NCBI GenBank assembly: GCA_018609195.1
Contig: JAHCSE010000001.1
Location: 9,559-73,558, forward strand
DNA length: 64,000 bases
Source of the DNA: Patescibacteria group bacterium
GTDB lineage: Bacteria > Patescibacteriota > Minisyncoccia > Minisyncoccales > RBG-13-36-15
Direction: 5' to 3'
A model generated the notes under the pieces. It was not told the DNA's origin and ran no database searches. It saw only the letters and a program-made list of their open reading frames with translations. The position numbers and the translations under genes were made by a program. Below, in pieces: positions 10,076-63,512 of this stretch. Positions within the stretch are counted from its first letter, which is position 1. Every line of letters begins with the position of its first letter.

Positions 10076-10076
10076 A

Positions 10077-10445: not shown

Positions 10446-10541
10446 AAGCGCTTCGCTAAAATAAAATATTAAATATAAAAGGTAAAATATTTTTTTAACT
10501 TTTGATTTGTGTTTTTTATTTTTGCTTTTTTATCTTTTATT

Positions 10542-10775: not shown

Positions 10776-10787
10776 AAAAATTGTTGG

Positions 10788-10967: not shown

Positions 10968-10993
10968 ATTTTAAGTACAGCTTTCTTAATTAT

Positions 10994-12047: not shown

Positions 12048-12049
12048 TT

Positions 12050-12541: not shown

Positions 12542-12576
12542 AAAATAATAAACAAGATTGGTTATTCTTTTTCCTT

Positions 12577-12888
12577 TTATTTTAGTTTCTCTGTCTCTTT
12601 TGCTCTAGTTTTTTCCTCTAATTCTCTTTGCATCCTACCACCATGTCTAAAAAACTTCGTGGTTGGGGCAAATTCTCCCAATTTATGACCAACTATCTCT
12701 TCAGTTATAGTAACTGGAATATGTTCTTTGCCATTATGAACGCCGAAAGTAAAGCCGACCATTTCCGGAGTGATGGTACAGCTTCTTGACCAAGTCTTAA
12801 TAATTTCTTTCGTACCAGGTTTTAGATTTTTAATTTTTTTTAATAATTTTTGGTCAACAAAAGGACCTTTCTTTAATGAACGTGCCAT
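12577..12888 (-). CDS. rpsS: 30S ribosomal protein S19
   Basis: [19 protein letters not shown] and [10 protein letters not shown] motifs. Confidence 0.94.
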
Positions 12889-12889
12889 A

Positions 12890-13684
12890 TTATTTCTTTT
12901 TTCTTCTTTGAATTATGTATTTATCTGTCCATCTTTTTTTTCTGGTCCTCACCCCTCGAGCTGGTTTTCCCCAAGGAGTTTTTGGATGTTTCAAGCCAAT
13001 GGGAGCCTTCCCCTCCCCTCCCCCATGGGGATGATCAGGAGGAATCATGGCTGTTCCCCGAACAGTAGGTCTCCTTCCTTTTAATCTTGTTCTTCCTGCT
13101 TTGCTAATTATCTCGTAAATTTTTTCAGGGTGAGAGACCATTCCAATTGAAGCGAAACATCGATTGGAAATTTTTCTAATTTCTCTAGAAGGCATCTCCA
13201 AATGAGTAAATTGATCTTCTTGGGCCAAAACCCGAGCTCCGGTTCCAGCCCCCCTGACCAGTTTTCCTCCCCTGCCTGGCTCAATTTCAATATTATAGAT
13301 CATGGTGCCTAAGGGAATATTTTTTAATTTCATTCGATTTCCAGCAGATATTGGGGCTTTCTCTGAAATCTGAACCTCATCTTTAATTTTTAAGTTTTGG
13401 GGAGCTAAAATATATCTCCTCTCTCCATCCTCATATTCCAGAAGAGCTAAAAACCCAGATCTGTAAGGATCGTATTCAAGAGATATGACTTTAGCTTTCT
13501 TTCCCATTTTTTCCTGGCCAAAATCAACAATTCGATAGAGCCTTTTTACCCCTCCCCCTCGGTGCCGCACCGTAATCCTGCCACTTGATCCTCTGCCGGC
13601 CGCACTCTTTAAGTGCAGGAGTAATCTTTTTTCGGGCTCTTTTTTAGATAATATTTTAATTGATGTTGATTTATCTCTTTTCAT
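12890..13684 (-). CDS. rplB: 50S ribosomal protein L2
   Basis: [11 protein letters not shown] and [14 protein letters not shown] motifs. Confidence 0.95.
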
Positions 13685-13696
13685 AAAAATTAAGTT

Positions 13697-14113
13697 TTAT
13701 CTTGGCAACACTTCAATTTTTTGTCCCTCTTTTATTTTGACTATTGCTTTTTTATATCCTTTTCTCCAGCCAGTTATTCTCCCTAATCTTCTCCTTTTTT
13801 GAGGAATCTTTATAATTTTAACATCTACGACCTTCACTCCATAAAGACCTTCAATTACCCTTTTAATCTCAATCTTATTAGATCTGGAATAAACTTTAAA
13901 AACGTATTGATTTTTTTTAGTCAAATCGGTAGCTTTCTCTGTGATATGGAGGGATTTTAATATTCGATAGGCATGAAGGGGAATTCCCTTTCTCTCAATT
14001 CTTTTTTCTTCTGGAGGAATTTCAGGTTCTCTCACTTCCTTCACCTTCTTTTCTGGAATTTCTCTTTTCTCTTTTTTAATTTTTTTCTTTCGAAAACGGT
14101 CTAAAATTCCCAT
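13697..14113 (-). CDS. rplW: 50S ribosomal protein L23 (N-terminal K/E-rich extension)
   Basis: L23 core (YVFKV...IKRVIEGLYGVKVVDVKII) preceded by about 45 extra residues. Confidence 0.88.
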   Translation of the reverse strand: MGILDRFRKKKIKKEKREIPEKKVKEVREPEIPPEEKRIERKGIPLHAYRILKSLHITEKATDLTKKNQYVFKVYSRSNKIEIKRVIEGLYGVKVVDVKIIKIPQKRRRLGRITGWRKGYKKAIVKIKEGQKIEVLPR

Positions 14114-14132
14114 ATTGTTATTACAGAGCGAA

Positions 14133-14271
14133 GTCGCTCGCCCTCCTCCAGCCTTTGGCTGGCGGTCGCCTTCGGCGACCTTCGGGCTCGCTCTTTAGAA
14201 ACCCTCGGTTTCTAACACTCGCTTCGCTTGCTGTTTTCCTACACGGGAGAACCTATGGTTCTCCCGACCCC
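14133..14271 (-). repeat. module A element, copy A1 (4 hairpins)
   Basis: Sense strand: GGGGTCGGGAGAAC-CATAG-GTTCTCCCGTGTAGGAAAACAG..TTAGAAACC-GAG-GGTTTCTAA..GTCGCC-GAA-GGCGAC..CCAGCC-AAA-GGCTGG..AGGAGGGCGAGCGAC. Confidence 0.85.
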
Positions 14272-14923
14272 TCTCCATTTTGGGCAGCAAATTGGGTTTC
14301 AGGAATGTCTCTTTTATTATATTTATTGATTCTTTAGGTATTAATAAATATTTGAAAGAAAGTAAGTCCAAGGGATTTAAATCTTTAGTCTGGGTAGTTT
14401 CTACTTTAGGAATATTTTTTGAGGCTCTAATGACAGCTTCCTCTTTTGTAGGAAGAGCAATCAAACAAGATGCTTTTTTTATTGGTAGATTATTTAAAAT
14501 CTCAACAATCAATTTTGTCTTTGGTTTATCTAATTTTAAAGAATCCAAAAGAACTATTAAATTTTCTTTAGCTTTCGTTGATAATACCATAAACAAAGCT
14601 TTTCTTCTCATTTTTTTAGGAATTTTTTGCTTAAAAACTCTCGTTTTTCTTGGTCCAAAAGTGATTCCTCCTCCTCGCCAGATTGGAGAACGAATAGAGC
14701 CTGCCCTCGCTCTCCCTGTTCCTTTTTGCCGCCAGGGTTTTCTTCCTCCACCCCGAACCTCAGCTCTAATTTTGGTATGAGCGATAGGAATCCTTCTATT
14801 TGCCATCTGGCTCACCACTACCTGATGTACTAAATCAGGATTGATTTTCACATCAAAAATTTCTTTTGGTAATGAAGTTTTCCCAACTTCTTTTCCTTCT
14901 TGATTGTAAGTCTTAATAAACAT
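14195..14923 (-). CDS. rplD: 50S ribosomal protein L4 (C-terminus reads into repeat A1)
   Basis: L4 motifs (RGGGRKPWRQKGTGRAR). There is no stop before the repeat, so the last ~25 codons (..ERGRENHRFSRVGKQQAKRVLETEGF) are encoded by element A1. Confidence 0.9.
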   Translation of the reverse strand: MFIKTYNQEGKEVGKTSLPKEIFDVKINPDLVHQVVVSQMANRRIPIAHTKIRAEVRGGGRKPWRQKGTGRARAGSIRSPIWRGGGITFGPRKTRVFKQKIPKKMRRKALFMVLSTKAKENLIVLLDSLKLDKPKTKLIVEILNNLPIKKASCLIALPTKEEAVIRASKNIPKVETTQTKDLNPLDLLSFKYLLIPKESINIIKETFLKPNLLPKMERGRENHRFSRVGKQQAKRVLETEGF

Positions 14924-14931
14924 AAGTTAAT

Positions 14932-15080
14932 AGCGAGGGTAAGTTTTTCAAAGAGCATCTCGGAGGCATCGCTGGCATGGTGTCCGAGCGCAACGAGGAA
15001 CAGCGACGCCGAGAGTTGAACAAAATTTTCCTCGCTGGGGAAAATTATTGTGTCTCTTTGAGGAAGCTTTGCCCGAACGC
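14932..15080 (-). repeat. module B element, copy B1 (149 nt)
   Basis: About 91% identical (13 mismatches by eye) to 20288..20436. Fills the whole rplC-rplD spacer. Imperfect terminal inverted repeats GCGTTCGGGCAAAGC / GCTTACCCTCGCT. Confidence 0.85.
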
Positions 15081-15900: not shown

Positions 15901-15990
15901 GTCGCTCCGCTCCTTAGAAACCCGCGGTTTCTAACGCTCGCTTCACTCGCTGTTTTCCTACACGGGGAGACACCCAGTCTCCCCGACCCC
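15901..15990 (-). repeat. module A element, copy A2 (short form, hairpins 1-2)
   Basis: Sense: GGGGTCGGGGAGAC-TGGGT-GTCTCCCCGTGTAGGAAAACAG..TTAGAAACC-GCG-GGTTTCTAA-GGAGCGGAGCGAC. Confidence 0.85.
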
Positions 15991-16009
15991 TTCTGTGCGG
16001 AGTTGCCAT

Positions 16010-17847: not shown

Positions 17848-17925
17848 CTATTTCCTCTTTCCCTCAATGATCTCCTGAGTAATATTCTGAGGTACTTCTC
17901 CGTAATGGTCGAATTCCATCGTAAA
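17848..17925 (-). pseudogene. orphan second copy of the last 25 codons + stop of fusA
   Basis: Encodes [25 protein letters not shown] versus the fusA end [25 protein letters not shown] (22/25 aa identical, 54/78 nt identical). Confidence 0.85.
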
Positions 17926-18089
17926 GTCGCTCCGCTCCTCCAGTCTTCGGCTGGCGCTCCCCGCCAACATCTTCGAAGTTGTGGCGGGTCGCTTCGCTCC
18001 GCTCCCCAGACACCTCTCGGTTTCTGGCGGTCGTCGCTTCGCTCCTCCCTGTTTTCCTACACGGGAAAACACCCAGTTTTCCCGACCCC
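17926..18089 (-). repeat. module A element, copy A3
   Basis: Sense: GGGGTCGGGAAAAC-TGGGT-GTTTTCCCGTGTAGGAAAACAG..CCAGAAACC-GAGA-GGTGTCTGG..two further hairpins..GGAGCGGAGCGAC. Confidence 0.85.
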
Positions 18090-18120
18090 TTTCTGCTTCA
18101 CTATGGAGTTTTATCTAAAA

Positions 18121-20256
18121 TTATCTCCGTTTGCCTTCTATAATTTCTTGTGCGATGTTCCCTGGCACTTCACCGTAGTGATCAAACTCCATAGTAAACG
18201 TTCCTCGGCCTTCGGTCATCGATCGCAAAGCTGTGGCATAACCAAACATCTCAGCCAGAGGAACTTTAGCTGAAATTATTTTCAAATTTAACCTATCTTT
18301 TGTTTCTTCAATCTTCCCCCTCCTCGCTCCTAAATCCCCAATAGTATCTCCAAAAAATTCAGAAGGAATAATTACTTCTAATCTCATTATCGGTTCAAGT
18401 AAAATAGGTTTTGCTCTTTTGGCGGCCGTTTGCAAAGCAGCAGATGCAGCTATCTTGAAAGCAAATTCTGAGGAATCAACCTCATGATAGGAACCATCAT
18501 AAAGAGTCACTTCGATGTCAACCATAGGATAGCCTGCAGTTATCCCTTTTTCCATAGCTTCCTTCACTCCTTTTTTCACAGCGGGGATAAATTCTTTTGG
18601 GATGATTCCTCCTTTAATCTCGTCGATAAATTCAAATCCCTCTCCTCGTGTTTTGGGCCGAATTTTCAAGAAAACATGACCATATTGGCCTCTGCCGCCT
18701 GATTGTCTAATATATTTTCCTTCAGCTGAAGTTTCCTCTTTTATTGTTTCTTTATAGGCAACCTGAGGTCTTCCGGATGAAGCTTCCACCTTAAATTCTC
18801 TTCTCATTCGATCATTAATTATCTCTAAATGGAGCTCCCCCATTCCTGAGATAATAGTTTCTCCCGTTTCTAAATCACTTTTAATTTTAAAAGTGGGGTC
18901 TTCCTCAGCCAATCTTTTCAAAGCTAAACTCATTTTCTCTTGGTCGGCCTTCGTTTTCGGTTCAATTCGAATGGAAATGACAGGTTCTGGAAAGGTAATT
19001 TTTTCTAAGACAATGGGGTTATCAGGGTCACAAAGAGTATGACCAGTACTAGTTTTTTTTAATCCAACCGTAGCCCCAATATCTCCAGCGAAAAACTCTT
19101 GTACTTCCTCACGATCTGCCGCATGCATCCTTAAAATTCTCCCAATTCTCTCTTTCTCGCCCGTAGTTGCATTTAATACATAAGAACCTCTTTTTAAGCT
19201 ACCTGCATAAACTCGGAAATAATTTAAAGTTCCAACATAAGGATCAGCAGCAGATTTAAAAACCAAAGCGGAAAATGATTCTGAATCTAAAACTTTTCTT
19301 TCAATTTCCTGACCATTTCGAGGATCAACTCCTCTCACCGGAGGTAAATCCAAGGGGCTAGGCAAAAAATTCACAATTCCATCTAAGAGAGGCTGAATTC
19401 CTTTATTTCTCAAAGCTGATCCACAAAATACCGGGATGAGTTTGTAGGAAATTGTGGCTTTTCTCAATACTTCTCTCAATTCATTGATTGAAATTTCCTT
19501 TTTGGCTAAGTATTTCTCTAAAAGTTTCTCATCTTCAGCTGCAATTTTCTCCACTAATTTTTCTCGCCACTCTTTAGCGATCTTGCGCAAATTTTCAGGT
19601 ATCTCTTCTTCAACAACATTCTGGCCAAAGTCACCTTCAAATTTTAAGGCTCGCATTGTAAAGAGATCAATCACTCCTTCAAAATTTTCCTCGCTACCAA
19701 TTGGTAATTGAAGAACCACCGCCTGGGGAGATAATTTTTCCCAAATTGATTGCAAGCTCTTTTCAAAAGAAGCTCCTGTCCTATCCATTTTATTGATAAA
19801 GCAAATTCTGGGAACAGAAAATCTATCTGCTTGATGCCATACCGTCTCAGATTGAGGTTCTACTCCTGCTACTCCATCGAAAATCACTACCGCCCCATCC
19901 AAAACTCGCAAAGATCTTTGTACTTCCGCTGTAAAATCAATATGGCCAGGAGTATCAATAATGTTTATTCGATACTCATCTTTTTTGCTTTTTTCTTTGG
20001 ATTGACCGGGGGCGGTGTGTGGGTGATAGGTGGATGGAGTCCAAAAACAAGTAGTGGCTGCAGCTGTAATAGTAATTCCCCTTTCTTTTTCTTGAATCAT
20101 CCAATCCATTATTGCCTCCCCTTCATGAACTTCTCCAATTTTATGAGAAATTCCAGTATAGAAAAGCACCCGCTCAGTAACGGTTGTTTTCCCAGCATCG
20201 ATATGAGCAATAATACCAATATTGCGAGTTCGTTCTATTGGATACAAACGAGGCAT
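18121..20256 (-). CDS. fusA: elongation factor G
   Basis: [17 protein letters not shown] and NKMD motifs; 711 aa. Confidence 0.97.
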
Positions 20257-20287: not shown

Positions 20288-20436
20288 AGCGAGGGTAAGC
20301 TTCTCAAAGAGCATCTCGGAGGCGTCGCTGGCAAGGTGTCCGAGTAAAGCGAGGAACAGCGACGCCGAGAGTTGAACAAAATTTTCCTCGCTGGGAAAAA
20401 TTATTGTGTCTCTTTGAGGGGGCTTTGCCCGAGCGA
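20288..20436 (-). repeat. module B element, copy B2 (149 nt)
   Basis: See B1. Contains a 10-bp stem GGCGTCGCTG/CAGCGACGCC and a long-range stem CTCAAAGAG/CTCTTTGAG. Confidence 0.85.
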
Positions 20437-20452
20437 ATCACCAAGCCAAATG

Positions 20453-20603
20453 GTCGCTCGCCCTCCTCCAGCGCAGAGCGCTGGCGGACGCCTTTGGCGT
20501 CCTTCGGGCTCACTCCCCAGACACCTCTCGGTTTCTGGCGCTCCTTCGCTTTCGCTCAGTCACTGTTTTCCTATACGGGGAAACACCCAGTTTCCCCGAC
20601 CCC
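20453..20603 (-). repeat. module A element, copy A4
   Basis: Sense: GGGGTCGGGGAAAC-TGGGT-GTTTCCCCGTATAGGAAAACAG..CCAGAAACC-GAGA-GGTGTCTGG..GACGCC-AAA-GGCGTC..CCAGCGC-TCT-GCGCTGG..AGGAGGGCGAGCGAC. Confidence 0.85.
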
Positions 20604-20609
20604 TTTCTG

Positions 20610-20635
20610 CCACTTTGCGTTACCACGCAAAGTGG
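20610..20635 (-). promoter_or_regulatory. 10-bp hairpin enclosing the rpsG stop codon
   Basis: CCACTTTGCG-TGGTAA-CGCAAAGTGG on the sense strand. The stop codon is in the loop, and the 3' arm abuts element A4. Confidence 0.7.
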
Positions 20636-26338: not shown

Positions 26339-26704
26339 TTATTTTTTATACCTTCGTTCATTAGTTTTATAACCAGTATCTGATGACCAAATAAGAAACA
26401 GCCTCTTTTTAAACCCTCCCTTAATCTTTGTACCCTCTTTCTGGGCATTTTTTATTTGCTGATTTGTAATTCCCTTAAATCTCTTTATTTCCTGAACAAC
26501 ATCTAAAACATCGGCTAACTCTGAAATCAATTTCTTTTTAGTTTTTGCGGCAAGTAAACCGTCTGCTTCTTCCCCTACTTTTTTTATGAGTTCTTTTTCA
26601 AAATCTTTTGCGTTTAATTTTCTTATTTTAAAATCGCCCCCGCTCTTTTTAATCTTTTCTGGTATTTTGTCACGAATTAGCTTATTGTAGCATATCTTTT
26701 TCAT
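26339..26704 (-). CDS. MazG-like nucleoside triphosphate pyrophosphohydrolase
   Basis: 121 aa; YNKLIRDKIPEKI N-terminus and EEADGL...ELADVLDV helices. Confidence 0.65.
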   Translation of the reverse strand: MKKICYNKLIRDKIPEKIKKSGGDFKIRKLNAKDFEKELIKKVGEEADGLLAAKTKKKLISELADVLDVVQEIKRFKGITNQQIKNAQKEGTKIKGGFKKRLFLIWSSDTGYKTNERRYKK

Positions 26705-26722
26705 TATTTCATTCTATCAAAA

Positions 26723-26741
26723 AACCGCCTTCTTGGCGATT
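26723..26741 (-). terminator. family terminator, copy b
   Basis: Identical 19-mer aaccgccttcttggcgatt. Downstream of 26823..27479. Confidence 0.6.
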
Positions 26742-26822
26742 TTTTTGTGGCTTCATCTATGAAAAGAAAAAGGCGACACGATAACCTCGGGTCGCCACTA
26801 AAAAAGAACAATTATAGTTTTG

Positions 26823-35679: not shown

Positions 35680-35826
35680 AAAAATGTGTCCTCCTCCGTT
35701 AAAACTTTGGAGGACATGGATGGCATTCTGACTTTCACAGTTACGGCATAGTCCCGGATTTCCTGCCCGCATCGCTATACGAAGTATTGCAGGCGGGTCA
35801 CCGGAGTTCCCCATCCGTTTTCAAAG
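35680..35826 (-). promoter_or_regulatory. cobalamin riboswitch with terminator expression platform
   Basis: Sense strand: GGATGGGGAACTCCGGTGA...GGAAATCCGGGACTATGCCGTAACTGTGAAAGTCAGAATGCCATCC (B12-box-like AGTCAGAATGCC; P1 stem GGATGG/CCATCC). This is followed by the hairpin TGTCCTCC...GGAGGACA and T7. Confidence 0.78.
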
Positions 35827-35837
35827 TCCGTTAATAA

Positions 35838-48202: not shown

Positions 48203-48979
48203 TTACAAATAATCAAGTATCCGCTCGTAGTCTATAAATTGCAAAGCTCTAAACCCCCAGGAAATTAAGAGCACCATCTTATTAGTAAGAAGCAGGATAC
48301 CAAGGAGGATAAGGAATGCGCCTCCGATAATTTCTACCCAGTGTAAATATCGAGTTATTTTTGTAATCGCAGAGGATACTGCTCCAATACCAGCGGCAAT
48401 AAGTAAAAAAGGGATAGCTAACCCCATAGAGAAAACGAAAAGGAGAAAGCCGCCCTGAAAGGCGGTAGAAGAAGTCGAAGCAAGAAAGAGAATTGCACCA
48501 AGAATTGGTCCCACACATGGTGTCCAGCCAGTGGCAAAAGCTGAACCAAGTAGAGCTGAACTCAATGGATTTCCGCGTCTGACTTGAAAAGGGAGTCTTA
48601 CCTTTCGTTCTTTGCTGAGGAATGAGGTAAGAAAAGGAATCCTGAAAATTCCTAACATAGAGAGACCGAAAAGTATGACAAATACGCCGGCAATACGCGT
48701 GAGCCAAATGCGATAAGCGCCAAAGGCTTGCCCTGCAAGACCTGCTAACGTTCCGAAGAGAACAAAAATAACCGTGACTCCCGCCATAAAAAATAGGCCG
48801 TTCAAAAAAATCTTCCTGCGGGCACTTCTTGCTTTTGTAGGATCTCTGAGTTCTTCAGCAGAGGTTCCACTGATAAAACCTAAATAAGCCGGTATAAGAG
48901 GAAGAGTGCAAGGGGCTAAGAACGTAATAATGCCGGCAATAAAAGCCGGGATAATGAGGGCAATTACTTCAGGGGTCAT
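48203..48979 (-). CDS. ccdA: cytochrome c-type biogenesis/thiol-disulfide transporter CcdA
   Basis: Canonical motifs LAPCTLPLIPAYLGF and WTPCVGPILGA; 258 aa. Confidence 0.85.
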   Translation of the reverse strand: MTPEVIALIIPAFIAGIITFLAPCTLPLIPAYLGFISGTSAEELRDPTKARSARRKIFLNGLFFMAGVTVIFVLFGTLAGLAGQAFGAYRIWLTRIAGVFVILFGLSMLGIFRIPFLTSFLSKERKVRLPFQVRRGNPLSSALLGSAFATGWTPCVGPILGAILFLASTSSTAFQGGFLLFVFSMGLAIPFLLIAAGIGAVSSAITKITRYLHWVEIIGGAFLILLGILLLTNKMVLLISWGFRALQFIDYERILDYL

Positions 48980-49506
48980 AATGCAAAAAGTTGTTGTACC
49001 TTAGATTTCATCTCATCAAAGGTCATGGGGCCCCGCTTATGGAAGAGGATATTTCCTTCTCCATCAACAAAAATTGTCTCTGGCATAGAAAATCCTCCGA
49101 TTGAGCGATAAAAAGAATCTTTGGGATCGAGGAGGAAAATAAGGGTATCTGTCACACCGAGATCATCTGTATAGCTCTTGGTTAGCTCAAGAGATTCAGC
49201 TCGGTCAATTGGAATAATGGTGATTTTATCTCCAAATTCCTGTTGGAGTTTTGCAAAATCCCCCAGTTCCTTAACGCAGAATGGACACCACACTGCCCAG
49301 GAATTTACAATAATGGATTTGCCTTGGAAATCGGAAAGAGCCACTGTGTTGCCACTATAGTCTTTCAAACTGAAATTGGGCGCTGGCTCAGGTTTTGGGG
49401 GCGTAAGAGTTTGAGTATCCTGTTTCTGACCCCCGCCCGAAACTATAAAAAAGATGATAATGGAGGCAAGAATAATAATTCCCACCACTACAAAGATTTT
49501 ATTCAT
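48976..49506 (-). CDS. TlpA/ResA-like membrane-anchored thioredoxin
   Basis: VNSWAVWCPFCVKE CxxC motif and N-terminal TM helix. Overlaps ccdA by 4 nt. Confidence 0.82.
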   Translation of the reverse strand: MNKIFVVVGIIILASIIIFFIVSGGGQKQDTQTLTPPKPEPAPNFSLKDYSGNTVALSDFQGKSIIVNSWAVWCPFCVKELGDFAKLQQEFGDKITIIPIDRAESLELTKSYTDDLGVTDTLIFLLDPKDSFYRSIGGFSMPETIFVDGEGNILFHKRGPMTFDEMKSKVQQLFAL

Positions 49507-49562
49507 AATAAATGCTAAAGCGAACCCACGGATGTATCACATTGCCGTGGGTTTGCTAAGAA

Positions 49563-49721
49563 TTATGCACATCCACCGCAGCCCCCTTTTTCTTTATGAG
49601 TATGTCCGCACTTCGAACATTTTTCCTGACGCTCCGCTCCACAGCAGGTCCCAGGGCTTTCAGTAGACTCTGAACCACAGCCGGGACAAATATGTGTTTT
49701 TTCGGTTGTTTCTTCTGCCAT
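49563..49721 (-). CDS. 8-Cys micro-protein 1 (52 aa), unannotated
   Basis: Own translation: MAEETTEKTHICPGCGSESTESPGTCCGAERQEKCSKCGHTHKEKGGCGGCA. Paralog of 51189..51338. Confidence 0.6.
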   Translation of the reverse strand: MAEETTEKTHICPGCGSESTESPGTCCGAERQEKCSKCGHTHKEKGGCGGCA

Positions 49722-49778
49722 ATTTTATATTTTTTGAAAATTTAATTTTACAATTTTTTCGACCTTTTCTTGGTTGTA

Positions 49779-50834
49779 TTATTTATACAATTCGGTATCT
49801 GGATAAGCTGCCACCCACGAAAACCAAAAAGCAGAAAAGGGATTGATGCGCTCCTCGCTGCCATCTGGCAATATCTTAAACATCCTGATCACATCAAGTT
49901 CTTTATCAGGCCGCAAGATAATAGTGGTATCTTGAAAAACATCCTCTACAGTGCCTTTTTCTTTTACTGCATCAATGTGGTATGCCTTAGCTTCTCCATT
50001 GATAACAATCCCGAATACAAAAGCATCATTAGGAAGTCGGGTATCAGTAGGTTTGGCAAGGGATAATGCCAAGTTTGTAGTTGAAAAATAATCGCCATAA
50101 GGCTTTGAGCCATAAAAGCGAAGAGCTCCCGTATCTTTGGAAAGAATTTCGCCATCAGGATGTAATTTTTTCCAGTTGCCGTAGCGCATCTGGTCTGAGG
50201 GCAATACTTTGAGTTTTGTTCCTGTCATTTCTCCTACAGCGGCTTCTCCCAAAATTTGCGGCCACAGGCTATCTGTCTTCCTATCATACATCACCAAGTT
50301 TGCCTTCCAGAGTTTTCCTGAGGTTCCAAACTCAACTCTCTCCCCTTTTACCAGAGGATCAAATATATACCCAGTGAGACAGAGAGGACAATAAGTAACA
50401 AGAACGCGTTCTCCCTCCACAATATCATTGACGATTTCATGCCAGACAGTAATCTGATAGGGATAAAAACGGTGAGTGTTTCCTCTCGAAAAAGCAATAC
50501 CTGGCTCTTCATCACTTAACCACTGATTTGCCTCTGTAATAGAAATAAACTTTGGATTATCAATAGAGGGAATGCCGTCTTTGGGCGGACCTCCACTAAT
50601 AATTTCTTCCAAAGGTATACTATGTTTAACTCCATCCGTCACCATAATTTCTTTTTCGGTTACCACAATTTCTTTTTCTCCTTCTTTGGTGATAATTTCC
50701 TCTTCTATGAGAACTTTTTCCTCTCGTGTTTCTCCTTTCGGCAGTTCAAACCTTTCTTTTCCAAATCTTTGGAAAATTAAAAAACCTACTCCTAAAAGAA
50801 TTAAAACTAAAATAGCAATATTAATAATCTTCAT
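49779..50834 (-). CDS. DUF3179 domain protein (membrane-anchored)
   Basis: GGPPKDGIPSIDNPKF motif, WHE...VTYCPLC, and an N-terminal TM helix. Confidence 0.7.
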   Translation of the reverse strand: MKIINIAILVLILLGVGFLIFQRFGKERFELPKGETREEKVLIEEEIITKEGEKEIVVTEKEIMVTDGVKHSIPLEEIISGGPPKDGIPSIDNPKFISITEANQWLSDEEPGIAFSRGNTHRFYPYQITVWHEIVNDIVEGERVLVTYCPLCLTGYIFDPLVKGERVEFGTSGKLWKANLVMYDRKTDSLWPQILGEAAVGEMTGTKLKVLPSDQMRYGNWKKLHPDGEILSKDTGALRFYGSKPYGDYFSTTNLALSLAKPTDTRLPNDAFVFGIVINGEAKAYHIDAVKEKGTVEDVFQDTTIILRPDKELDVIRMFKILPDGSEERINPFSAFWFSWVAAYPDTELYK

Positions 50835-51465: not shown

Positions 51466-51780
51466 TTATTTTAATAATCCTTTAATTTTTTCAGCAAGGG
51501 AGTAGCAAGCCATTCTCCCAATCTTCACCCTTCTTACCAAACCTGCTCTCTCAAGTAAACTCAATTGATGGGAAACAGCGCTTATACTAATATGTAAAAT
51601 TTGTGAAAAGTCAGTAGGACACAATTTTTTATAGTGTTTGAGCAAAAAAATAATTTTAAGGCGGGTGGGGTCAGAACAAAGATAATAAAAACTGCTTTTT
51701 TCTTTAATTTTTTGAGAAAGTTTTGCTAATTCTCTCTGGGAATTTTTGATTTCTCTTCCCTTAAGAAGCATTAATTGCAT
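51466..51780 (-). CDS. ArsR/SmtB-family transcriptional regulator
   Basis: 104 aa; winged HTH (DPTRLKIIFLL...ISISAVSHQLSLLERAGLV). Confidence 0.8.
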   Translation of the reverse strand: MQLMLLKGREIKNSQRELAKLSQKIKEKSSFYYLCSDPTRLKIIFLLKHYKKLCPTDFSQILHISISAVSHQLSLLERAGLVRRVKIGRMACYSLAEKIKGLLK

Positions 51781-51798
51781 ATTTGCTCAACTATTTAA

Positions 51799-51826
51799 AT
51801 ATTATCTGGATAAAAAAACTTGTCAA
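51799..51826 (-). promoter_or_regulatory. promoter of ArsR-1 with TTATC-N2-GATAA inverted repeat in the spacer
   Basis: Minus strand TTGACA-agtttttttatccaga-TAATAT. Confidence 0.5.
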
Positions 51827-51941
51827 GTGGTAGGTTGTGGAAAACTCAACCTTAAGAAATAAAAAGCCACTTTAAAACTTGGGGGTTTAAACTTTTGAAT
51901 CAACATGTTTTTGTCTTATTACTCTTTTTCCTTAAGATTAA

Positions 51942-52799
51942 CTACGGCAGAATTTGAAGTAGCCGTTCGCTTAACGTGATTACAATATTAAAGGCACCCA
52001 TAAGGATGAGGAAAAAGCCTCCTAATAACCTGATAGGTTTCATTTGCCTAACCAATGTTTGTGTCAAGGATTCTCTCGCAAATCCAGCTATAACTGAAAG
52101 TGATATCATGAGCAAAGCCATAACAGTACTTGCAAGTATAAAGACAGTTAAAGCAGAGGATAACCCGCCGCCACTCAAGGCAAAAAGAGAAAGTCCACCA
52201 ACTAAGGGAGCTACACAACCTATCCCAGCTAAAGTATATCCAAATCCAAACATAAAAAATTTACCAAACATTCCGCGGCCTCTTTTCGATATTTCAGTGC
52301 CAAGATGTTCCACTTTTCCTAAACTGACGAATACTTTATTGGTTACCAATGCCAACCCAAGTCCTATCAACAAAACACCAATGATTCGTCTAAACCATAG
52401 CAGTGCCGTTGTTCCTGGTTTAATAAAATTAATAAATGTTTCTCCCAAAAGTCCGATGACAATTCCGAAAAGAATCATAAACGCTAAAAGACCTAATGCA
52501 GCATAGAATCCATTACGAATCAGTTTTCCTCGAGAAAGTACTCGCCCTCCCCCACTCACCACCTCTGTTTGATAAACCAAATAAGATGGGAGGATCGGTA
52601 AAACACACGGATTAAAGAAAGCCGCTATCCCGACACCTAAGCCAGCGACAATAAGCGTAACCAAGGATATATCCGATGGTTTCATAAAACTTTTTGTAGC
52701 CGAAAAGAGGTAAAATCCGATAACTGCTATAACAATAAAAAACACTGCTAAGCCGATGTAAAGTAGAACAGGATGAGTTTTTGTCTGAGTATTATTCAT
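51942..52799 (-). CDS. CcdA/DsbD-like thiol-disulfide transporter paralog
   Basis: 285 aa; FFNPCVLPILPSYLVY and GIGCVAPLVGG motifs. Confidence 0.72.
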   Translation of the reverse strand: MNNTQTKTHPVLLYIGLAVFFIVIAVIGFYLFSATKSFMKPSDISLVTLIVAGLGVGIAAFFNPCVLPILPSYLVYQTEVVSGGGRVLSRGKLIRNGFYAALGLLAFMILFGIVIGLLGETFINFIKPGTTALLWFRRIIGVLLIGLGLALVTNKVFVSLGKVEHLGTEISKRGRGMFGKFFMFGFGYTLAGIGCVAPLVGGLSLFALSGGGLSSALTVFILASTVMALLMISLSVIAGFARESLTQTLVRQMKPIRLLGGFFLILMGAFNIVITLSERLLQILP

Positions 52800-52896
52800 A
52801 GGTACTATTTGAAGTTATAAGCTATTAGTTAATCATTTTAGAACTCGACCTTTGATTTCTTTTTCTTTAACTAATGCCCTCGTGGTTATAATAGGT

Positions 52897-53064
52897 TTAT
52901 TGATGCCTGTCCTGTAGGACGTGCTTATTAATTTCGAGATTGCAGCTTTTGTGTTCTCTGCACCAAGCCTCACATTTCTCTGCCCACTCTTCATCTTCAT
53001 ACTTATATCCACATTCCTCGCATTGATATAATTCTTTGTTTTCTTGTTCTATTTTCTTAACCAT
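52897..53064 (-). CDS. Cys-rich zinc-ribbon protein (55 aa), unannotated paralog of 57515..57700
   Basis: Own translation: MVKKIEQENKELYQCEECGYKYEDEEWAEKCEAWCREHKSCNLEINKHVLQDRHQ. Overlaps the upstream gene by 8 nt. Confidence 0.65.
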   Translation of the reverse strand: MVKKIEQENKELYQCEECGYKYEDEEWAEKCEAWCREHKSCNLEINKHVLQDRHQ

Positions 53065-53332
53065 TTTGGGGAGATAATTCTTTTAATTTTTCTACTAACT
53101 TATTTTTATCAAGCCCTCCAACTGCAAAAAGCTCTCCATTAACGACAATACCAGGCGAAACCATAATACCGTATTCCTGAACCATTTTCTGGCCTTGTTC
53201 AGAAAACATATCAATGTATTCAATTTCCGCATCTGGAAATTGGGGTTTAATTTCTTCTTCTAAAGTTTTCTTTGCCGTGGCACAGTGACTACACCCTGGT
53301 GTTGAAAGTTCTTGAATTTTTATCTTATTCAT
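53057..53332 (-). CDS. small thioredoxin-fold protein (redox-active disulfide protein 2-like)
   Basis: 91 aa; TPGCSHCATAKK CxxC; SPGIVVNGE. Confidence 0.75.
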   Translation of the reverse strand: MNKIKIQELSTPGCSHCATAKKTLEEEIKPQFPDAEIEYIDMFSEQGQKMVQEYGIMVSPGIVVNGELFAVGGLDKNKLVEKLKELSPQNG

Positions 53333-53882
53333 ATTCTCTTAAGGCTTGGAAAGAATTATCTAATATATTATTGACCTTATCCCAATATCCTTGACTGATA
53401 GCATCATTCAACTCCTCTTCAATAAATACTTCGAGAGAGACTCCTCGTTCTGCAAGTCCTTGAGCGAGTATGCTTAATTTGAATTCAATTTCTTGAGGAA
53501 TTTCTGTTACTTGCCCCCGAGAAGTAGTGCCGGTATATGCCTGGTCAGCAAGGATACGAGCAGAATATGCTTGAAAAATTGAAGCATCTATAATTTGTTC
53601 TTTCGTAATGCTCGTAGAATCATATATTACCCAACCAGAATCAGTTCTCGGGTCAGCATCTGCTTGCACAACTCCTGGTATGCCCAATAAGGAATTTACC
53701 ACACTTGAACGACATCCCAGACAAAACATATTGTTAATCTCCAAATCCACCTTCCGAAGGTTTGCTTGGACAACATCTCCTCCAAGAGAAGTATCCTTAC
53801 TGCTGCCACCGAATAGAAACACTCCTCCGATAATTGCCCCCACAATAATTATTGACAATGGTATGAGAAGACTCTTATTCAT
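53325..53882 (-). CDS. membrane-anchored heavy-metal-associated (HMA) domain protein
   Basis: N-terminal TM helix; NNMFCLGCRSSVVNSLLGIPGVVQADAD is an MxCxxC ferredoxin-like metal-binding domain. Confidence 0.65.
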   Translation of the reverse strand: MNKSLLIPLSIIIVGAIIGGVFLFGGSSKDTSLGGDVVQANLRKVDLEINNMFCLGCRSSVVNSLLGIPGVVQADADPRTDSGWVIYDSTSITKEQIIDASIFQAYSARILADQAYTGTTSRGQVTEIPQEIEFKLSILAQGLAERGVSLEVFIEEELNDAISQGYWDKVNNILDNSFQALREYE

Positions 53883-53905
53883 AGAGGTTTAATAATAGTG
53901 TAAGT

Positions 53906-54075
53906 CTACTACATCCCCCAAATAAAAAATATAGTAAACATCCACATGCTTGTTAAAACTAATATTCCGCCTGCAACCTTTTTCATTGTTTCTGTTTTTC
54001 CAATCATTGTTTTGAAAAAAGTGTGCTTACCCTGTCCGATAAATACGGTAACTGCAATAAGAAATAGGGCTTGAA
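53906..54075 (-). pseudogene. orphan 3'-terminal fragment of a CcdA-like gene
   Basis: About 93% identical (about 12 mismatches in ~170 nt by eye) to 55384..55553, the 3' end of 55387..56214. No upstream coding part remains. Confidence 0.8.
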
Positions 54076-54077
54076 AT

Positions 54078-54200
54078 TTAAAAACCCGCAGCTCGTTCCA
54101 TGACTTCAGCCACTTGTTCTTTTGTAATGTTTTTTGCTATTTTGATTACACTTTCGCAGCAGGTGCAATCTTTTATATGGATTATAGTTAGCGTTGTCAT
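54078..54200 (-). CDS. 40-aa ORF resembling a truncated HMA domain
   Basis: Own translation: MTTLTIIHIKDCTCCESVIKIAKNITKEQVAEVMERAAGF. May be a gene fragment. Confidence 0.3.
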   Translation of the reverse strand: MTTLTIIHIKDCTCCESVIKIAKNITKEQVAEVMERAAGF

Positions 54201-54235
54201 AATATGTGTTTAATTAGTTATTATTTTTCTATACA

Positions 54236-55357
54236 TTACCTTACTGAAGTATATTCTCCGAGCAGACCTTTTTTCGATAATACTATCTGCCATTGCTGGG
54301 CTTTTCGAGCCCGGAAGGATCCTGCAGCCGAGAGAAGATAGTATTTCCACATTCGATAAAATCTATCCCCATATTTAGTGCGCAATTCATTCCAGTGCGA
54401 ATTAAAGTTGTCCCACCAGTGCATAAGAGTCGTATCGTAGTGAGTACCAAAGCTATGCCAGTCCTCAAGAACAAACAGCCCTTCCGCTGCCTTTGCGATC
54501 TGTTTGTATGACGGAAGCATTGTATTCGGAAAAATATATTTCAAATACCACGGATCCAATCCAATTGAGGACGTACTAACACCTCCTGCGTCTAAGAGAA
54601 AAAGTCCATCATCGCTAAGCATGGAGTGAACCTTTTCCATGTAGAGTCGGTAATTTTTGTATCCGACATGCTCAAACATCCCTAACGAAACAATATGGTC
54701 AAACGTTCCATCAATATCACGATAATCCTGTAGACGAGTTTCTGTCGGCAAATCACCGCGCTGTGCGTTCGCATAGTCCGCCTGCTCTTTCGACACCGTA
54801 ATCCCTACACATTGAGCCCCGTAGCGCTCAGCAGCAAAGTTGATAAAGCTGCCCCACCCTGAGCCAATATCGAGAATTCGATCGCCTTTTTGTATTCCAA
54901 GTTTCCTGCACGTAAGGTCGAGTTTTAATTCCTGTGCCTCGTCAAGTGTTTGCGCATTCTTCCAGTACCCACATGTGTAGGTCAGTCGTTTGTCGAGCAT
55001 TGCCTTAAATAAGTCATTGCCAATGTCATAGTGATCTTCTCCAACCTGAAACGCGCGCAAACGCGGCATGTTGATGAGCTTTGCCTTGAGATAATTCCAT
55101 ACCAATACTGGATTTATGCGTGCCTGTTTTTCAAGTCTCGAGCGAAGAACTTTGTTAAAAAATTCATCAAGCTCTTTCACGTCCCACCAGCCGTCCATAT
55201 ACGACTCACCAAGCCCGAGAGAGCCCTGGCTTAGGACACGACCGTAGAATTTCTCGTTGTGCACTTGAATATCCCATGGTCGATCGCCATTGATTGTAAT
55301 ACCTGCCTCCGAAGCTAATTGTTCAATAACTACTTTAGGTGTAAACGGCATATTCAA
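54236..55357 (-). CDS. cfa: cyclopropane-fatty-acyl-phospholipid synthase
   Basis: 373 aa, colinear with classic Cfa (GSLGLGESYMDGWWD, VLDIGSGWG, GMFEHVG, YDTTLMHW). Visibly GC-richer than its neighbours. Confidence 0.88.
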   Translation of the reverse strand: MNMPFTPKVVIEQLASEAGITINGDRPWDIQVHNEKFYGRVLSQGSLGLGESYMDGWWDVKELDEFFNKVLRSRLEKQARINPVLVWNYLKAKLINMPRLRAFQVGEDHYDIGNDLFKAMLDKRLTYTCGYWKNAQTLDEAQELKLDLTCRKLGIQKGDRILDIGSGWGSFINFAAERYGAQCVGITVSKEQADYANAQRGDLPTETRLQDYRDIDGTFDHIVSLGMFEHVGYKNYRLYMEKVHSMLSDDGLFLLDAGGVSTSSIGLDPWYLKYIFPNTMLPSYKQIAKAAEGLFVLEDWHSFGTHYDTTLMHWWDNFNSHWNELRTKYGDRFYRMWKYYLLSAAGSFRARKAQQWQIVLSKKGLLGEYTSVR

Positions 55358-55386
55358 TTATTTTTCTACAAACGTTAGAAAGATTA

Positions 55387-56214
55387 CTACATTCCCCATA
55401 TAAAGAATATAGCAAACATCCACATACTTGTTAAGACTAATATTCCGCCTGCGACCTTTTTCATTGTTTCTGTTTTTCCAATCATTGTTTTGAAAAACGT
55501 GTGCTTTCCCTGCCCGATAAATACGGTAACTGCAATAAGAAATAATGCTTGAGCAAGACTAAAAATCAGAAAGCTTGAAATACTGACTAAAAATTCTCCA
55601 CCCACAAGAGGGAAGAATACCAATGGTAAAAAGATGGGCAAGAAACACATCAATCCTCCAGCCCCATATACAATGCCAAAGCCAAAAAGATTAACGCTTT
55701 GTGAACGCCCACGACTCATTTTATTAACTTTATCTCTGAAGGAAGAAAGAAAATTAATATTGATAGATTTGCCACGCAAAAAAGCAATGCCGATAAACAA
55801 AATGAGAATTGCAACGGCAAATTTCAATTGGCTAGCATAGGAAGCCAGAAATGTCCCGATAGTCGCAAAAAGTAAACCAAGGACAATAAAGAAGCTGAAT
55901 ACACCGAGTGAGGCAATAATGCCAAGCTTGATACTTCTTTTAATTGGCGAGTGTTTTTCTTCTCCCTCGTCCATTCCAAGATAAAAAGACATATAAGCCG
56001 GAAGCACTCCTAAGGAACAGGGTCCAAAATTCACAATAAGCCCGGCAATGAAAGCAAAGCCCAAAATACCAAGCGTGCTAAAGGCAGCAAGATTGCTTGT
56101 CTGGGGAATAATAATCCCATACAGAACTTTCCAGCCAAAGATACTGGCAACCACAAAAATAGTAAGTGCTGCCAATATCCAAATGCTATAAGTTACTATT
56201 TTTGACTTAATCAT
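55387..56214 (-). CDS. CcdA/DsbD-like thiol-disulfide transporter paralog
   Basis: NFGPCSLGVLPAYMSFY motif. Start set at MIKSKIV (4 nt after the stop of the upstream gene) rather than the track's 56286. Confidence 0.68.
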   Translation of the reverse strand: MIKSKIVTYSIWILAALTIFVVASIFGWKVLYGIIIPQTSNLAAFSTLGILGFAFIAGLIVNFGPCSLGVLPAYMSFYLGMDEGEEKHSPIKRSIKLGIIASLGVFSFFIVLGLLFATIGTFLASYASQLKFAVAILILFIGIAFLRGKSININFLSSFRDKVNKMSRGRSQSVNLFGFGIVYGAGGLMCFLPIFLPLVFFPLVGGEFLVSISSFLIFSLAQALFLIAVTVFIGQGKHTFFKTMIGKTETMKKVAGGILVLTSMWMFAIFFIWGM

Positions 56215-56218
56215 AAAA

Positions 56219-57076
56219 TTAAGGAAAAAGAATTTTTGTAAATGGAGTGATGAAAACAGAAGAAAGAATAAGGAAAATTCCGACAATAAGAAGTAGAACG
56301 CCGCTTACTCTTTTGATAGCAACGGTTGATTGGCGAAGACTTTGGAGTAAAGTTTCTTTGGAAAAAGCAATGAGCAGTGATACAACAATCATCAGAAGTG
56401 CCATTACTAATGAATAAACCACAAAAGCCAGAAACGCATCTGAGAAGCCACCTTGAGATAGTGCAAATACAATGAGCCCACCCATGATTGGGCCTCCACA
56501 ACCGATACCAAGTAGTGGATAGCCAAAACCATAGCCATAGAGTTTTCCAAATCCCGCTTGTTTTTCTTCCGGCAATGATTTCGGATGCCATAAATGCCCT
56601 AATCTCCCAAAAGGATTCCCTCTCCCTGTGGCGTGGCTAAAACCAAGATACAGAAGAAACACTCCTACAATGCCACGCAGCCATCTTACTGGTATGCTTG
56701 GGTTTTCTCCTGCAAGCCCTAATGATTTCCCAAAACCAGCTCCTAAAATACCAATGCCAATACCGAGTAAAAGATTAAAGGTGATAAGACCTAATGCTGC
56801 TGCTAATCCAGAGAGGAGTAGTTTCGTTGCTGACTTTTTACTTTCACCTTCTTTTGTTGTGTAGTATTGAGCAAAGTAGGCAGGAAGCAATGGAAAAGCA
56901 CAAGGGTTAAAGAAACTTGCCACTCCTGCAACTACCGCAACAAATAGTAACCCAAAAGCAGCACCTCCCTTCATTATGTTGATAACAAACCAGATAAATA
57001 ACCCATACCCGCCTGCTACCAAAACAAAAATAATAAAAAAAAGAAAAATGAGCTTGCTCCAATCTTTTAACGACAT
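56219..57076 (-). CDS. CcdA/DsbD-like thiol-disulfide transporter paralog
   Basis: 285 aa; FFNPCAFPLLPAYFAQY and GIGCGGPIMGG. Overlaps ArsR-2. Confidence 0.72.
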   Translation of the reverse strand: MSLKDWSKLIFLFFIIFVLVAGGYGLFIWFVINIMKGGAAFGLLFVAVVAGVASFFNPCAFPLLPAYFAQYYTTKEGESKKSATKLLLSGLAAALGLITFNLLLGIGIGILGAGFGKSLGLAGENPSIPVRWLRGIVGVFLLYLGFSHATGRGNPFGRLGHLWHPKSLPEEKQAGFGKLYGYGFGYPLLGIGCGGPIMGGLIVFALSQGGFSDAFLAFVVYSLVMALLMIVVSLLIAFSKETLLQSLRQSTVAIKRVSGVLLLIVGIFLILSSVFITPFTKILFP

Positions 57077-57369
57077 AGCTTTTTGCAGAATTTGTTAATA
57101 TGCTTATCCATTAACCCAAGAAGCGGCTTTGTTGTTTCTTTGTTTAGAGTATAAATGCGTTCTTTTCCATTTCTTTCCATGCTTACAAAACCACATTTTT
57201 GAAGCCGTCCTAAGTGATGCGAGACAAGACTTTGCTCATAGCCAAGTTTCTTGGCAATAGCAGTTACATTTAGCTTTCCTTTTCGAAGCAAATGGATAAT
57301 ATCCCACCTTGTTTTATTCCCCAGGGTTTCAAAAAAGATTTTATATGGTTCGCGAATAATTCTCTTCAT
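57067..57369 (-). CDS. ArsR/SmtB-family transcriptional regulator
   Basis: 100 aa; LGNKTRWDIIHLL...QSLVSHHLGRLQKCGFV winged HTH. Confidence 0.82.
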   Translation of the reverse strand: MKRIIREPYKIFFETLGNKTRWDIIHLLRKGKLNVTAIAKKLGYEQSLVSHHLGRLQKCGFVSMERNGKERIYTLNKETTKPLLGLMDKHINKFCKKLCR

Positions 57370-57376
57370 AGTATGA

Positions 57377-57404
57377 ATTATATTTCATATGAAACTTATG
57401 TCAA
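57377..57404 (-). promoter_or_regulatory. consensus promoter of ArsR-2 with palindromic operator; transcript probably leaderless
   Basis: Minus strand TTGACA-taagTTTCATATGAAA-TATAAT. The 12-bp perfect palindrome fills the spacer, and the -10 box ends only 7 nt before the ATG. Confidence 0.65.
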
Positions 57405-57457
57405 GTGTATTTTTCCACAAGAGTTCTCATTGTTTTGTTTTGTATAGAGATATAAAA

Positions 57458-57476
57458 AACCGCCTTCTCGACGATT
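57458..57476 (-). terminator. family terminator, copy e (variant)
   Basis: aaccgccttctcgacgatt. Downstream of 57515..57700. Confidence 0.5.
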
Positions 57477-57514
57477 GATTAAGATTTCAGCCTACCCTGT
57501 TGCTCCCTATTTCT

Positions 57515-57700
57515 TTAGCTCTCTGACTTCTCAAGGAAAGCAGGTTCTTTCACAGCGTGCTCGGTAATCTCAAGGTTACAGCTTTTGTGTTCCAAGCACC
57601 AAGCCTCGCATTTCTCTGCCCACTCTTTTTCTCTATAAGTAAAACCGCACTCTCTGCACTGGTAATACGTTTTATTGTTTTGAGTAATAACTTTTGGCAT
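57515..57700 (-). CDS. Cys-rich zinc-ribbon protein (61 aa)
   Basis: YYQCRECGFTYREKEWAEKCEAWCLEHKSCNLEI. Paralog of 52897..53064. Confidence 0.65.
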   Translation of the reverse strand: MPKVITQNNKTYYQCRECGFTYREKEWAEKCEAWCLEHKSCNLEITEHAVKEPAFLEKSES

Positions 57701-63346: not shown

Positions 63347-63390
63347 TCTCTTTTATTGTATTGGAATTTTAATTCCGATACAACACAGGA

Positions 63391-63512
63391 GGGGTCGGGA
63401 GGATTGGGTATCCTCCCGTATAGGAAAACAGGCTTTCAGGTGAGCGAAGCGAAGACTGAAAACGTTAGAAACCGTGGGTGTCTAAAGAACATGGTGCCGA
63501 GCGTTAGCGAGG
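63391..63512 (+). repeat. module A element, copy A6 (opposite orientation)
   Basis: Plus strand: GGGGTCGGGAGGAT-TGGGT-ATCCTCCCGTATAGGAAAACAG..GAGCGAAGCGAAG..TTAGAAACC-GTG-GGTGTCTAA.. Confidence 0.8.

Follow-up and report, generated by a model that had tools for sequence, protein, structure and literature searches.

When prophage e14 or phage 21 inserts into the Escherichia coli icd gene, the incoming DNA brings a substitute 3' end that leaves the gene intact, and the original 3' end is kept on the far side as an orphan, the icdC pseudogene. The end swap on e14 excision is visible as synonymous changes, according to the account of Hill et al. 1989 given in PMC13626634. Orphaned 3' regions are also known from type VI secretion system (T6SS) effector and immunity loci, Rhs loci and contact-dependent inhibition (CDI) loci, in which a conserved upstream anchor is combined with an illegitimate far end and the resident 3' part is displaced. 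For T6SS and Rhs loci, homology-facilitated illegitimate recombination (HFIR) has been proposed (PMC5361080, where de Vries & Wackernagel 2002, Prudhomme 2002 and Meier & Wackernagel 2003 are cited as sources). Here we describe a comparable locus in a 64-kb stretch of a Patescibacteria group bacterium (assembly GCA_018609195.1, contig JAHCSE010000001.1, positions 9,559 to 73,558; 64,000 nucleotides (nt), hereafter the window). A 1.3-kb foreign block carrying cfa, a gene for a cyclopropane-fatty-acyl-phospholipid synthase, sits right after the stop codon of a CcdA-like membrane protein gene (ccdA#2), inside a thiol/metal-redox operon headed by an ArsR gene in this small and AT-rich genome, and a second copy of the ccdA#2 3' end lies beyond it.

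The outcome resembles icd in both respects, with an intact target gene on one side of the insert and an orphaned end on the other. The cargo differs: e14, a prophage of 15 kb, encodes an integrase and shows SOS-induced excision, whereas the block described here measures 1.3 kb, holds one metabolic gene and contains no recombinase. The synonymous changes at icd, moreover, arise on excision, whereas here the two copies of the gene end themselves differ mostly at synonymous sites. The upstream anchor, the displaced resident end and a putatively illegitimate far joint recall T6SS, Rhs and CDI loci. In those systems, variable toxin or immunity ends of the same gene are exchanged, whereas here a conserved gene end accompanies an unrelated cargo gene.

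A repeat search identified the longest repeat in the whole window as a gap-free direct repeat of 173 nt that brackets cfa, with copies 92% identical and 1,478 nt apart (Table 1). The original prediction had described it correctly as a repeat of ~170 nt, placed ~4 nt off. A CAAGC motif 165 nt ahead of the last nt of the ccdA#2 stop codon marks one end of the duplicated unit, the other end lying ~7 nt past the stop, and 153 of the 165 positions in the ccdA frame are identical. Copy A is the true 3' end of ccdA#2, a DsbD_TM/CcdA-like gene of 275 amino acids (aa), or 299 aa if counted over the whole open reading frame (ORF), which is open up to 56286. Copy B lacks an upstream coding part, as had been noticed earlier; its frame is open only from 54136, with no canonical start before the ATG at 54007. 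Three independent assemblies reproduce this structure, confirming that it is real. A 71-kb JGI contig (L016/L017, sample 3300010931) is 99.99–100% identical across the whole locus, and Logan contigs L001 and L018 (SRR5189788) and L019 (SRR12068623) cover both junctions and carry the copy-specific variants. L001 alone would fit a 1.48-kb circle, but L016/L017 span the integrated form and L018 and L019 join copy B to the HMA gene downstream, so we rejected an assembly artefact or free circle. Every contig with an identical HMA or CcdA#2 protein carries the insertion; no other genome does.

Relatives of CcdA#2 taken from genome and metagenome collections show the site without an insert. They comprise L006 (Patescibacteria group bacterium AH-259-L07), L007, L010, L011/L012/L013, L014 and L015, which we count as seven related contigs from six relatives, with L011 and L012 taken together. 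In all seven, the HMA and thioredoxin genes, in one order or the other, come immediately after ccdA#2, and neither cfa nor a second ccdA#2 was found at the site. In L006, L007, L010, L011 and L013, both window copies align to one and the same stretch of the ccdA#2 3' end. Because these seven contigs have an empty site, comparison identifies the 1,305-nt block as an insertion with a duplicated gene end and not as a decayed third module. The original prediction had left two options, and the contigs separate them: integration of cfa at the gene's 3' end with a replaced or duplicated end is the better one, and loss of most of a third module copy on the arrival of cfa is unlikely.

The two copies are not a fresh duplication. 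They differ at 12 of the 165 coding nt, and 11 of these differences are synonymous. With L010 as a close outgroup, nine of the 12 are specific to copy B, comprising eight synonymous changes and one non-synonymous change, with seven of the nine at third codon positions. Over the same 165 nt, copy A, copy B and L010 are roughly equidistant (identical positions: A–B 153, A–L010 154, B–L010 148), with other relatives at 130–141, and both copies share a unique I-to-V change. We simulated in-situ duplication with the intact copy under selection and the orphan evolving neutrally, and obtained this pattern in at most 1 of 10,000 runs (P ≤ 1e-4) at any transition bias tried. Since the orphan, which has no usable start for most of its length, still looks as though it was recently part of a working gene, the copies are two versions of one gene end, alleles or paralogues that have diverged and were formerly functional. 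The intact ccdA#2 ends in copy A; copy B, still joined to the native downstream genes, is probably the displaced end.

Table 1 Features of the cfa locus (window coordinates). All locus genes lie on the minus strand, in the order ArsR, CcdA-like #1, CcdA-like #2, cfa, 40-aa ORF, orphan 3' end, HMA, thioredoxin-fold.
Feature	Coordinates	Strand	Remarks
Sigma-70-type promoter match TTGACA-16-TATAAT, 12/12 consensus	57377..57404	-	In front of the ArsR gene; consensus match only
ArsR/HTH_5 regulator, first gene of the operon	57067..57369	-	PF01022, E=1.8e-12
CcdA-like membrane protein #1, 285 aa	56219..57076	-	Weak DsbD_TM match; homologous and syntenic in L010, L011, L015
CcdA-like membrane protein #2 (ccdA#2), intact, ends in repeat copy A	55387..56214	-	275 aa in public assemblies
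Repeat copy A: last 165 nt of ccdA#2 and ~7 nt past the stop; completes the gene	55380..55552	-	
Inserted block, 1,305 nt	54075..55379	-	Without counterpart in seven related contigs
cfa, two-domain E. coli-type cyclopropane-fatty-acyl-phospholipid synthase, 371 aa	54236..55351	-	
Cfa codons D254-A255-G256	54584..54592	-	H-T-I in 116–117 of 120 homologues
Chimeric 40-aa ORF	54078..54200	-	3' half (~54078–54137) matches the 3' end of gene X
Repeat copy B: orphan, displaced ccdA#2 3' end, contiguous with native downstream genes	53902..54074	-	
HMA-domain protein, 185 aa, native downstream neighbour of ccdA#2	53325..53882	-	Right after ccdA#2 in L006, L007, L010, L014, L015
Thioredoxin_3/glutaredoxin-like protein, 91 aa, next native gene	53057..53332	-	Syntenic in L006, L007, L014, L015

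Apart from cfa, the insert contains only the 40-aa ORF and no recombinase gene. The original prediction had found this ORF and called it HMA-like; the ORF stands, but its match to HMA genes is at chance level (tblastn E=5.9), against 1e-5 for a gene we call X. Gene X encodes a 492-aa shikimate-dehydrogenase-like protein in L002, where it ends 35 nt upstream of cfa. The last 63 nt of the ORF are 84% identical to the X 3' end in L002, a run of 33 nt matches the L009 X 3' end at 94% identity, and the last 19 residues agree at 16 positions with the conserved C-terminus of the family, AKNITKEQVAEVMKRAASS. Members of the X family are labelled Vogelbacteria, Yanofskybacteria, Falkowbacteria and Parcubacteria. 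These matches identify the 3' half of the ORF as the conserved 3' end of a Parcubacteria shikimate-dehydrogenase-like gene, and on this evidence the ORF settles the type of donor locus. The 5' half, which contains CTCC, matched nothing among the fetched loci. No full X gene was found in the window, and no X homologue from the 750-kb contig was among the top 120 matches.

Both ends of the insert can be read. The right-hand joint falls 4 nt past the X stop codon; in L009, ATTTCCAAGCAC, with which the X terminator stem begins, comes right after this stop. Comparison of the X flank in L009 (TAAATTTCCAAGCAC) with ccdA at the start of the repeat (GCTCAAGCAT) and with the window (TAAATTTCAAGCCC) suggests a CAAGC microhomology at this joint, and CAAGCCC is a natural ccdA variant present in L007. 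The left-hand joint lies after TAGTAATCTT, and the 28 nt left between it and the cfa start are similar to the leader of cfa in L009. Short microhomologies lie at both junctions, ATCTT and the suggested CAAGC. We found no terminal inverted repeats in the insert, in which the best inverted match is 16 nt at 81% and does not lie at the ends. A transposon or insertion sequence was rejected on this ground, together with the lack of a transposase and a duplication of 173 nt rather than a short one.

The cfa gene is intact; its ORF (54236–55357) opens with a TTG, and databases take the ATG at 55351 as its start. Its composition is foreign to the window, whose overall GC content is 37.7%. GC at third codon positions (0.457) is the highest of 74 long window ORFs (mean 0.310, s.d. 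0.047, z=3.2), and overall GC is 0.449 against 0.371, in line with the earlier description of a compositionally foreign gene between two CcdA-like 3' ends. In the loci of the four closest homologues (L002, L004, L008 and L009), cfa has a GC content of 0.43–0.46 and the rest of the locus 0.40–0.45, so that the gene fits its surroundings there and does not in the window. The nearest relatives of the protein share 68–79% aa identity, and labelled matches at 60–67% come from Parcubacteria, Patescibacteria and Kaiserbacteria, with single Xanthomonadales and Chloroflexota metagenome-assembled genome (MAG) entries at similar identity. In a quick neighbour-joining distance tree of 120 homologues, rooted on E. 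coli and carrying no support values, the window Cfa is sister to P0002 and P0003 within a clade that contains a Patescibacteria-labelled sequence; these two nearest relatives are precisely those with X upstream of cfa at their loci.

By these relationships, cfa is of Patescibacterial ancestry and not a proteobacterial import. The designation 'proteobacterial-type' in the original prediction therefore holds for the architecture of the enzyme, which is that of E. coli Cfa, and not for its origin. Nesting among candidate phyla radiation (CPR) homologues of similar GC content had been named as evidence that would speak against the arrival of cfa from elsewhere; the nesting was found, and a GC content similar to that of the host genome was not. 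Because cfa nests among Patescibacteria homologues yet keeps their higher GC, the donor was probably a GC-richer Patescibacterium. The neighbourhood of cfa differs in each close relative's locus and has no recognisable element ends, and the surroundings of X and cfa in L002 are ordinary redox genes of the chromosome rather than a mobile element. In L004 (Cfa 74% aa identical; 10001–14840), cfa is directly upstream of a DUF3179-DUF3105-Redoxin-DsbD_TM block. Since this block has a counterpart in the window at 48203–50834, 3.4 kb downstream of cfa, the gene tends to adjoin thiol-redox genes in this group, though the exact neighbours differ. A phage vector was rejected, as neither a cfa relative nor the X 3'-end pattern was found on IMG/VR viral contigs.

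Like E. coli Cfa (PDB 6BQC), the encoded enzyme has the full-length two-domain architecture, comprising a lipid-binding domain at the N terminus plus a catalytic domain. It matches the Pfam CMAS family (PF02353) at 270.2 bits over residues 102–358 (cut-off 27) and chain A of 6BQC with a phmmer E-value of 1.7e-114, aligning residues 9–360 to 21–373 of the chain. The S-adenosylmethionine (SAM) motif LDIGxGWG is present as ILDIGSGWG, in columns that are invariant or nearly so. In the E. coli enzyme, the bicarbonate site is formed by C139, E239, H266, I268 and Y317, which are strictly conserved in non-plant enzymes (PMC3132707), and the bound bicarbonate is thought to be the catalytic base of cyclopropane fatty acid (CFA) synthase (PMC3132707, PMC11387697). 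The window Cfa keeps the equivalents of C, E and Y, and has D for H and G for I; with A for the intervening T, the triplet H266-T267-I268 becomes D-A-G. Column counts among the 120 homologues are H 116, Q 3 and D 1 at the first position, T 116, A 2 and S 2 at the second, and I 117, L 2 and G 1 at the third, and the D-A-G combination is unique to the window Cfa. The triplet arose by point substitutions, with no frameshift, and is also present in an independent Logan contig. General decay of the enzyme was rejected, with no deviation at 81 near-invariant columns of the 120 homologues; at looser conservation thresholds, four deviations appear, namely the HTI triplet and L353Q. The D-A-G variant may reflect a loss of activity, a carboxylate that takes the place of bicarbonate, or a different product.

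How the block arrived is something that we infer from its junctions and repeats. With somewhat better than even confidence, we favour homology-anchored recombination with an illegitimate far joint at the CAAGC microhomology. The ultimate source of cfa would be a Parcubacteria-type lineage of higher GC content that has X upstream of cfa, and the scrap of X would have come along with the gene. A close relative would then have supplied DNA in which cfa and the X scrap were linked to that relative's own ccdA#2 end. On one side, this DNA would have paired homologously within the resident ccdA#2; on the other, it would have been joined illegitimately at CAAGC, 165 nt upstream of the resident stop codon, as in HFIR. 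Because that joint lies upstream of the resident ccdA#2 end, the end would have been retained, so that the event would have kept ccdA#2 intact and pushed the old 3' end downstream. A circularised fragment entering by a Campbell-type single crossover in the shared 173 nt would give the same product. There is opportunity for such exchange, since related Patescibacteria share samples: 3300010931 contains both L011 and L016, and SRR5189788 both L013 and L001. To our knowledge, HFIR has not been demonstrated in Patescibacteria.

Several observations weigh against this route or limit what can be built on it. The predicted donor arrangement, ccdA#2 followed by cfa, occurs in no fetched locus except that of the window's own genome, and the closest sampled CcdA#2 (P0121 of L010, 92% aa identical) has an empty site. 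The X scrap is found downstream of cfa in the window, against an upstream position of X in L002 and L009; this calls for one or more further steps, through a circular, tandem or multi-switch intermediate. L009, from which the microhomology was read, is not itself the donor. No clear recombination breakpoint emerges when the identity of ccdA#2 to L010 is followed along the gene by sliding comparison, and a breakpoint within the gene was rejected accordingly. Which copy of the repeat is the native one is inferred, and the repeat statistics draw on 12 substitutions only. It is also uncertain that the acquired Cfa is active, because two of the five conserved bicarbonate-site residues have been lost.

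The synonymous divergence of the orphan could be had without a second donor if two full ccdA#2 genes had once stood in tandem and diverged, and a cfa/X fragment had then replaced the 5' three-quarters of the second. Paralogous ArsR/CcdA/DUF7128 modules abound in the region, and the I-to-V change common to both copies would be accounted for. Such a history would, however, require a duplication dating back roughly to the split from L010 and then a very recent truncation; a second ccdA#2 before the HMA/thioredoxin genes is missing from all seven related contigs, and no B-type full-length protein is present among 45 CcdA#2 homologues from a search of 5.8 billion proteins. We regard this lost paralogue as unlikely. 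An in-situ duplication on insertion, by a staggered break, sister-chromatid joining or replication template switching, with the orphan then decaying neutrally, would fit the ATCTT and CAAGC microhomologies and the patchwork of cfa, an unmatched piece and the X 3' scrap, which together resemble microhomology-mediated template switching. The repeat itself speaks strongly against neutral decay: the excess of synonymous differences between the copies was all but absent from the simulations, the orphan-specific changes run 8 synonymous to 1 non-synonymous with most at third positions, and the orphan is as distant from copy A as the L010 orthologue is. In-situ duplication is thus the sole rival that is clearly disfavoured, and we give it very little credence.

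The geometry also invites comparison with an integrative element, since direct repeats of a gene 3' end flank the insert and the gene is reconstituted. On this account, the locus would be the remnant of a site-specific element that targets the ccdA#2 3' end and brings its own copy of it, in the manner of e14 or phage 21 or of a CIME-type decayed integrative and conjugative element (ICE); the repeats would be attL and attR, and the recombinase module would have been lost or would act in trans. The arrangement matches icd/e14/icdC, with an intact gene bearing an element-borne end and the native end as a far-side pseudogene, and a second displaced 3' end at fusA, adjoining a GC-rich repeat family, hints at a recurrent and possibly element-driven process. 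The contents of the insert argue otherwise, as do the chromosomal setting of X and cfa in L002, the different cfa neighbourhoods without element ends in every relative and the failure to find cfa relatives on IMG/VR viral contigs. We scanned 20 window proteins against Pfam (ten in the cfa operon, eight others flanking it and two elsewhere) and found no recombinase match among them, the remaining window ORFs lying outside the scan. A candidate for a nearby integrase, a plus-strand ORF beside tRNA-Pro, proved to be another DsbD_TM protein. We regard an element remnant as the main rival but judge it quite unlikely, and retain homology-anchored recombination as the preferred route.

The recipient operon lies in a region with related gene modules. 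The CcdA-like target protein reaches 25.4 bits against DsbD_TM (cut-off 27.1) over residues 74–291; homologues of CcdA#2 are precomputed as PF02683, and one source names them CcdA. Paralogous modules of ArsR, CcdA-like and DUF7128 zinc-ribbon genes occupy 51466–53064 and 56219–57700, with repeats between them at 52920–53046 and 57556–57682 (73%) and at 52442–52512 and 56740–56810 (70%), and sit in an island with VKOR, DoxX, thioredoxins, DUF3179, Redoxin and DsbD_TM. A 467-aa Pyr_redox_2 (MerA/TrxR-like) gene belongs to this operon in L010 and L015 and is missing from that of the window. The perfect promoter match in front of the ArsR gene is likely to be the operon promoter. Because of this consensus promoter and because no terminator-like site was found between ccdA#2, cfa and HMA, cfa is probably co-transcribed with the thiol/metal stress operon, a reading that draws on consensus matches. 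Each repeat copy also contains a promoter-like TTAACA-17-TATATT (55406–55434 and 53928–53956, minus strand; consensus match only) just upstream of cfa and HMA, respectively. Speculatively, an internal promoter in the ccdA#2 3' end may have been duplicated along with it, so that HMA would retain what lay upstream of it and cfa would acquire a like context.

Elsewhere in the window, the last ~27 codons of fusA (18121–18201) recur as an orphan at 17848–17928 on the minus strand with 67% nt identity, so the parallel drawn in the original prediction with a duplicated fusA 3' end is real. Of the 27 differences between these two ends, 20 fall at third codon positions; 19 codons differ synonymously and four non-synonymously. 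The copies are parted by a 192-nt insert of 58% GC (region 17848–18201) that contains a member of a hairpin repeat family. This GC-rich family of 51–59-nt repeats occurs at 14189–14278, 15908–15997, 18046–18096 and 20560–20610, with a translated match near 63388–63480, and had no Rfam match at the gathering threshold. Its members overlap the stop codons of str/S10 ribosomal-operon genes or follow them closely, and the rplD frame appears to enter one copy. A further intergenic repeat of 148 nt (14932–15079 and 20288–20435, 92%), in the rplC–rplD and rpsG–fusA gaps, matches the ccdA repeat in identity level and is not a gene 3' end. An intergenic motif of ~40 nt, AAAAAAATCGCCAAGAAGGCGGTTTTTTGATAGAAT, with a hairpin, a T-run and TAGAAT, lies at 26702–26752, is 95% conserved with three intergenic sites of L010 (859–894, 1464–1500 and 3043–3085) and may be a shared terminator/promoter unit. 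The only known RNA families in the window are tRNA-Pro and an AdoCbl-II (cobalamin) riboswitch aptamer (35713–35827, minus strand; 39.1 bits against a gathering score of 36.5), both away from the cfa locus.

It is conceivable, though we think it improbable, that this lineage repeatedly gains DNA with a recoded gene end, the resident end being left in place, and that its Asp-variant Cfa is bicarbonate-independent or makes a methylene or methyl-branched lipid. If true, a small mobile element not described so far, or an outcome of transformation characteristic of ultra-small bacteria, could lie behind the two displaced ends within 64 kb, at ccdA#2 and fusA. For the present, the displaced fusA end and the altered active site of Cfa are leads rather than results.

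The original prediction considered cyclopropane synthesis unexpected in an organism presumed to scavenge lipids, which does not follow. CFA synthase needs SAM and does not need fatty-acid synthesis. It methylenates acyl chains already present in membrane phospholipids (PMC11387697), and the window Cfa would likewise use SAM to cyclopropanate unsaturated acyl chains of existing membrane phospholipids. Because the enzyme acts on existing phospholipids, without fatty-acid synthesis, a lipid scavenger can use it, and Cfa fits such a lifestyle. Cfa is annotated in many Patescibacteria MAGs; we found nothing specific on Cfa in CPR/Patescibacteria in the literature.

As a case of gene acquisition, the cfa insertion is clear but rather ordinary, a new instance of a familiar kind of event. 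Its value lies in how well the gain is resolved in an ultra-small, host-dependent bacterium, through seven empty-site contigs, an identifiable donor-type locus and readable junctions. A gene that came from within Patescibacteria landed in a stress operon, left its target gene intact and left a dated scar. The locus also corrects the view of Cfa as out of place in lipid scavengers, for in-situ remodelling of scavenged phospholipids would suit such an organism.

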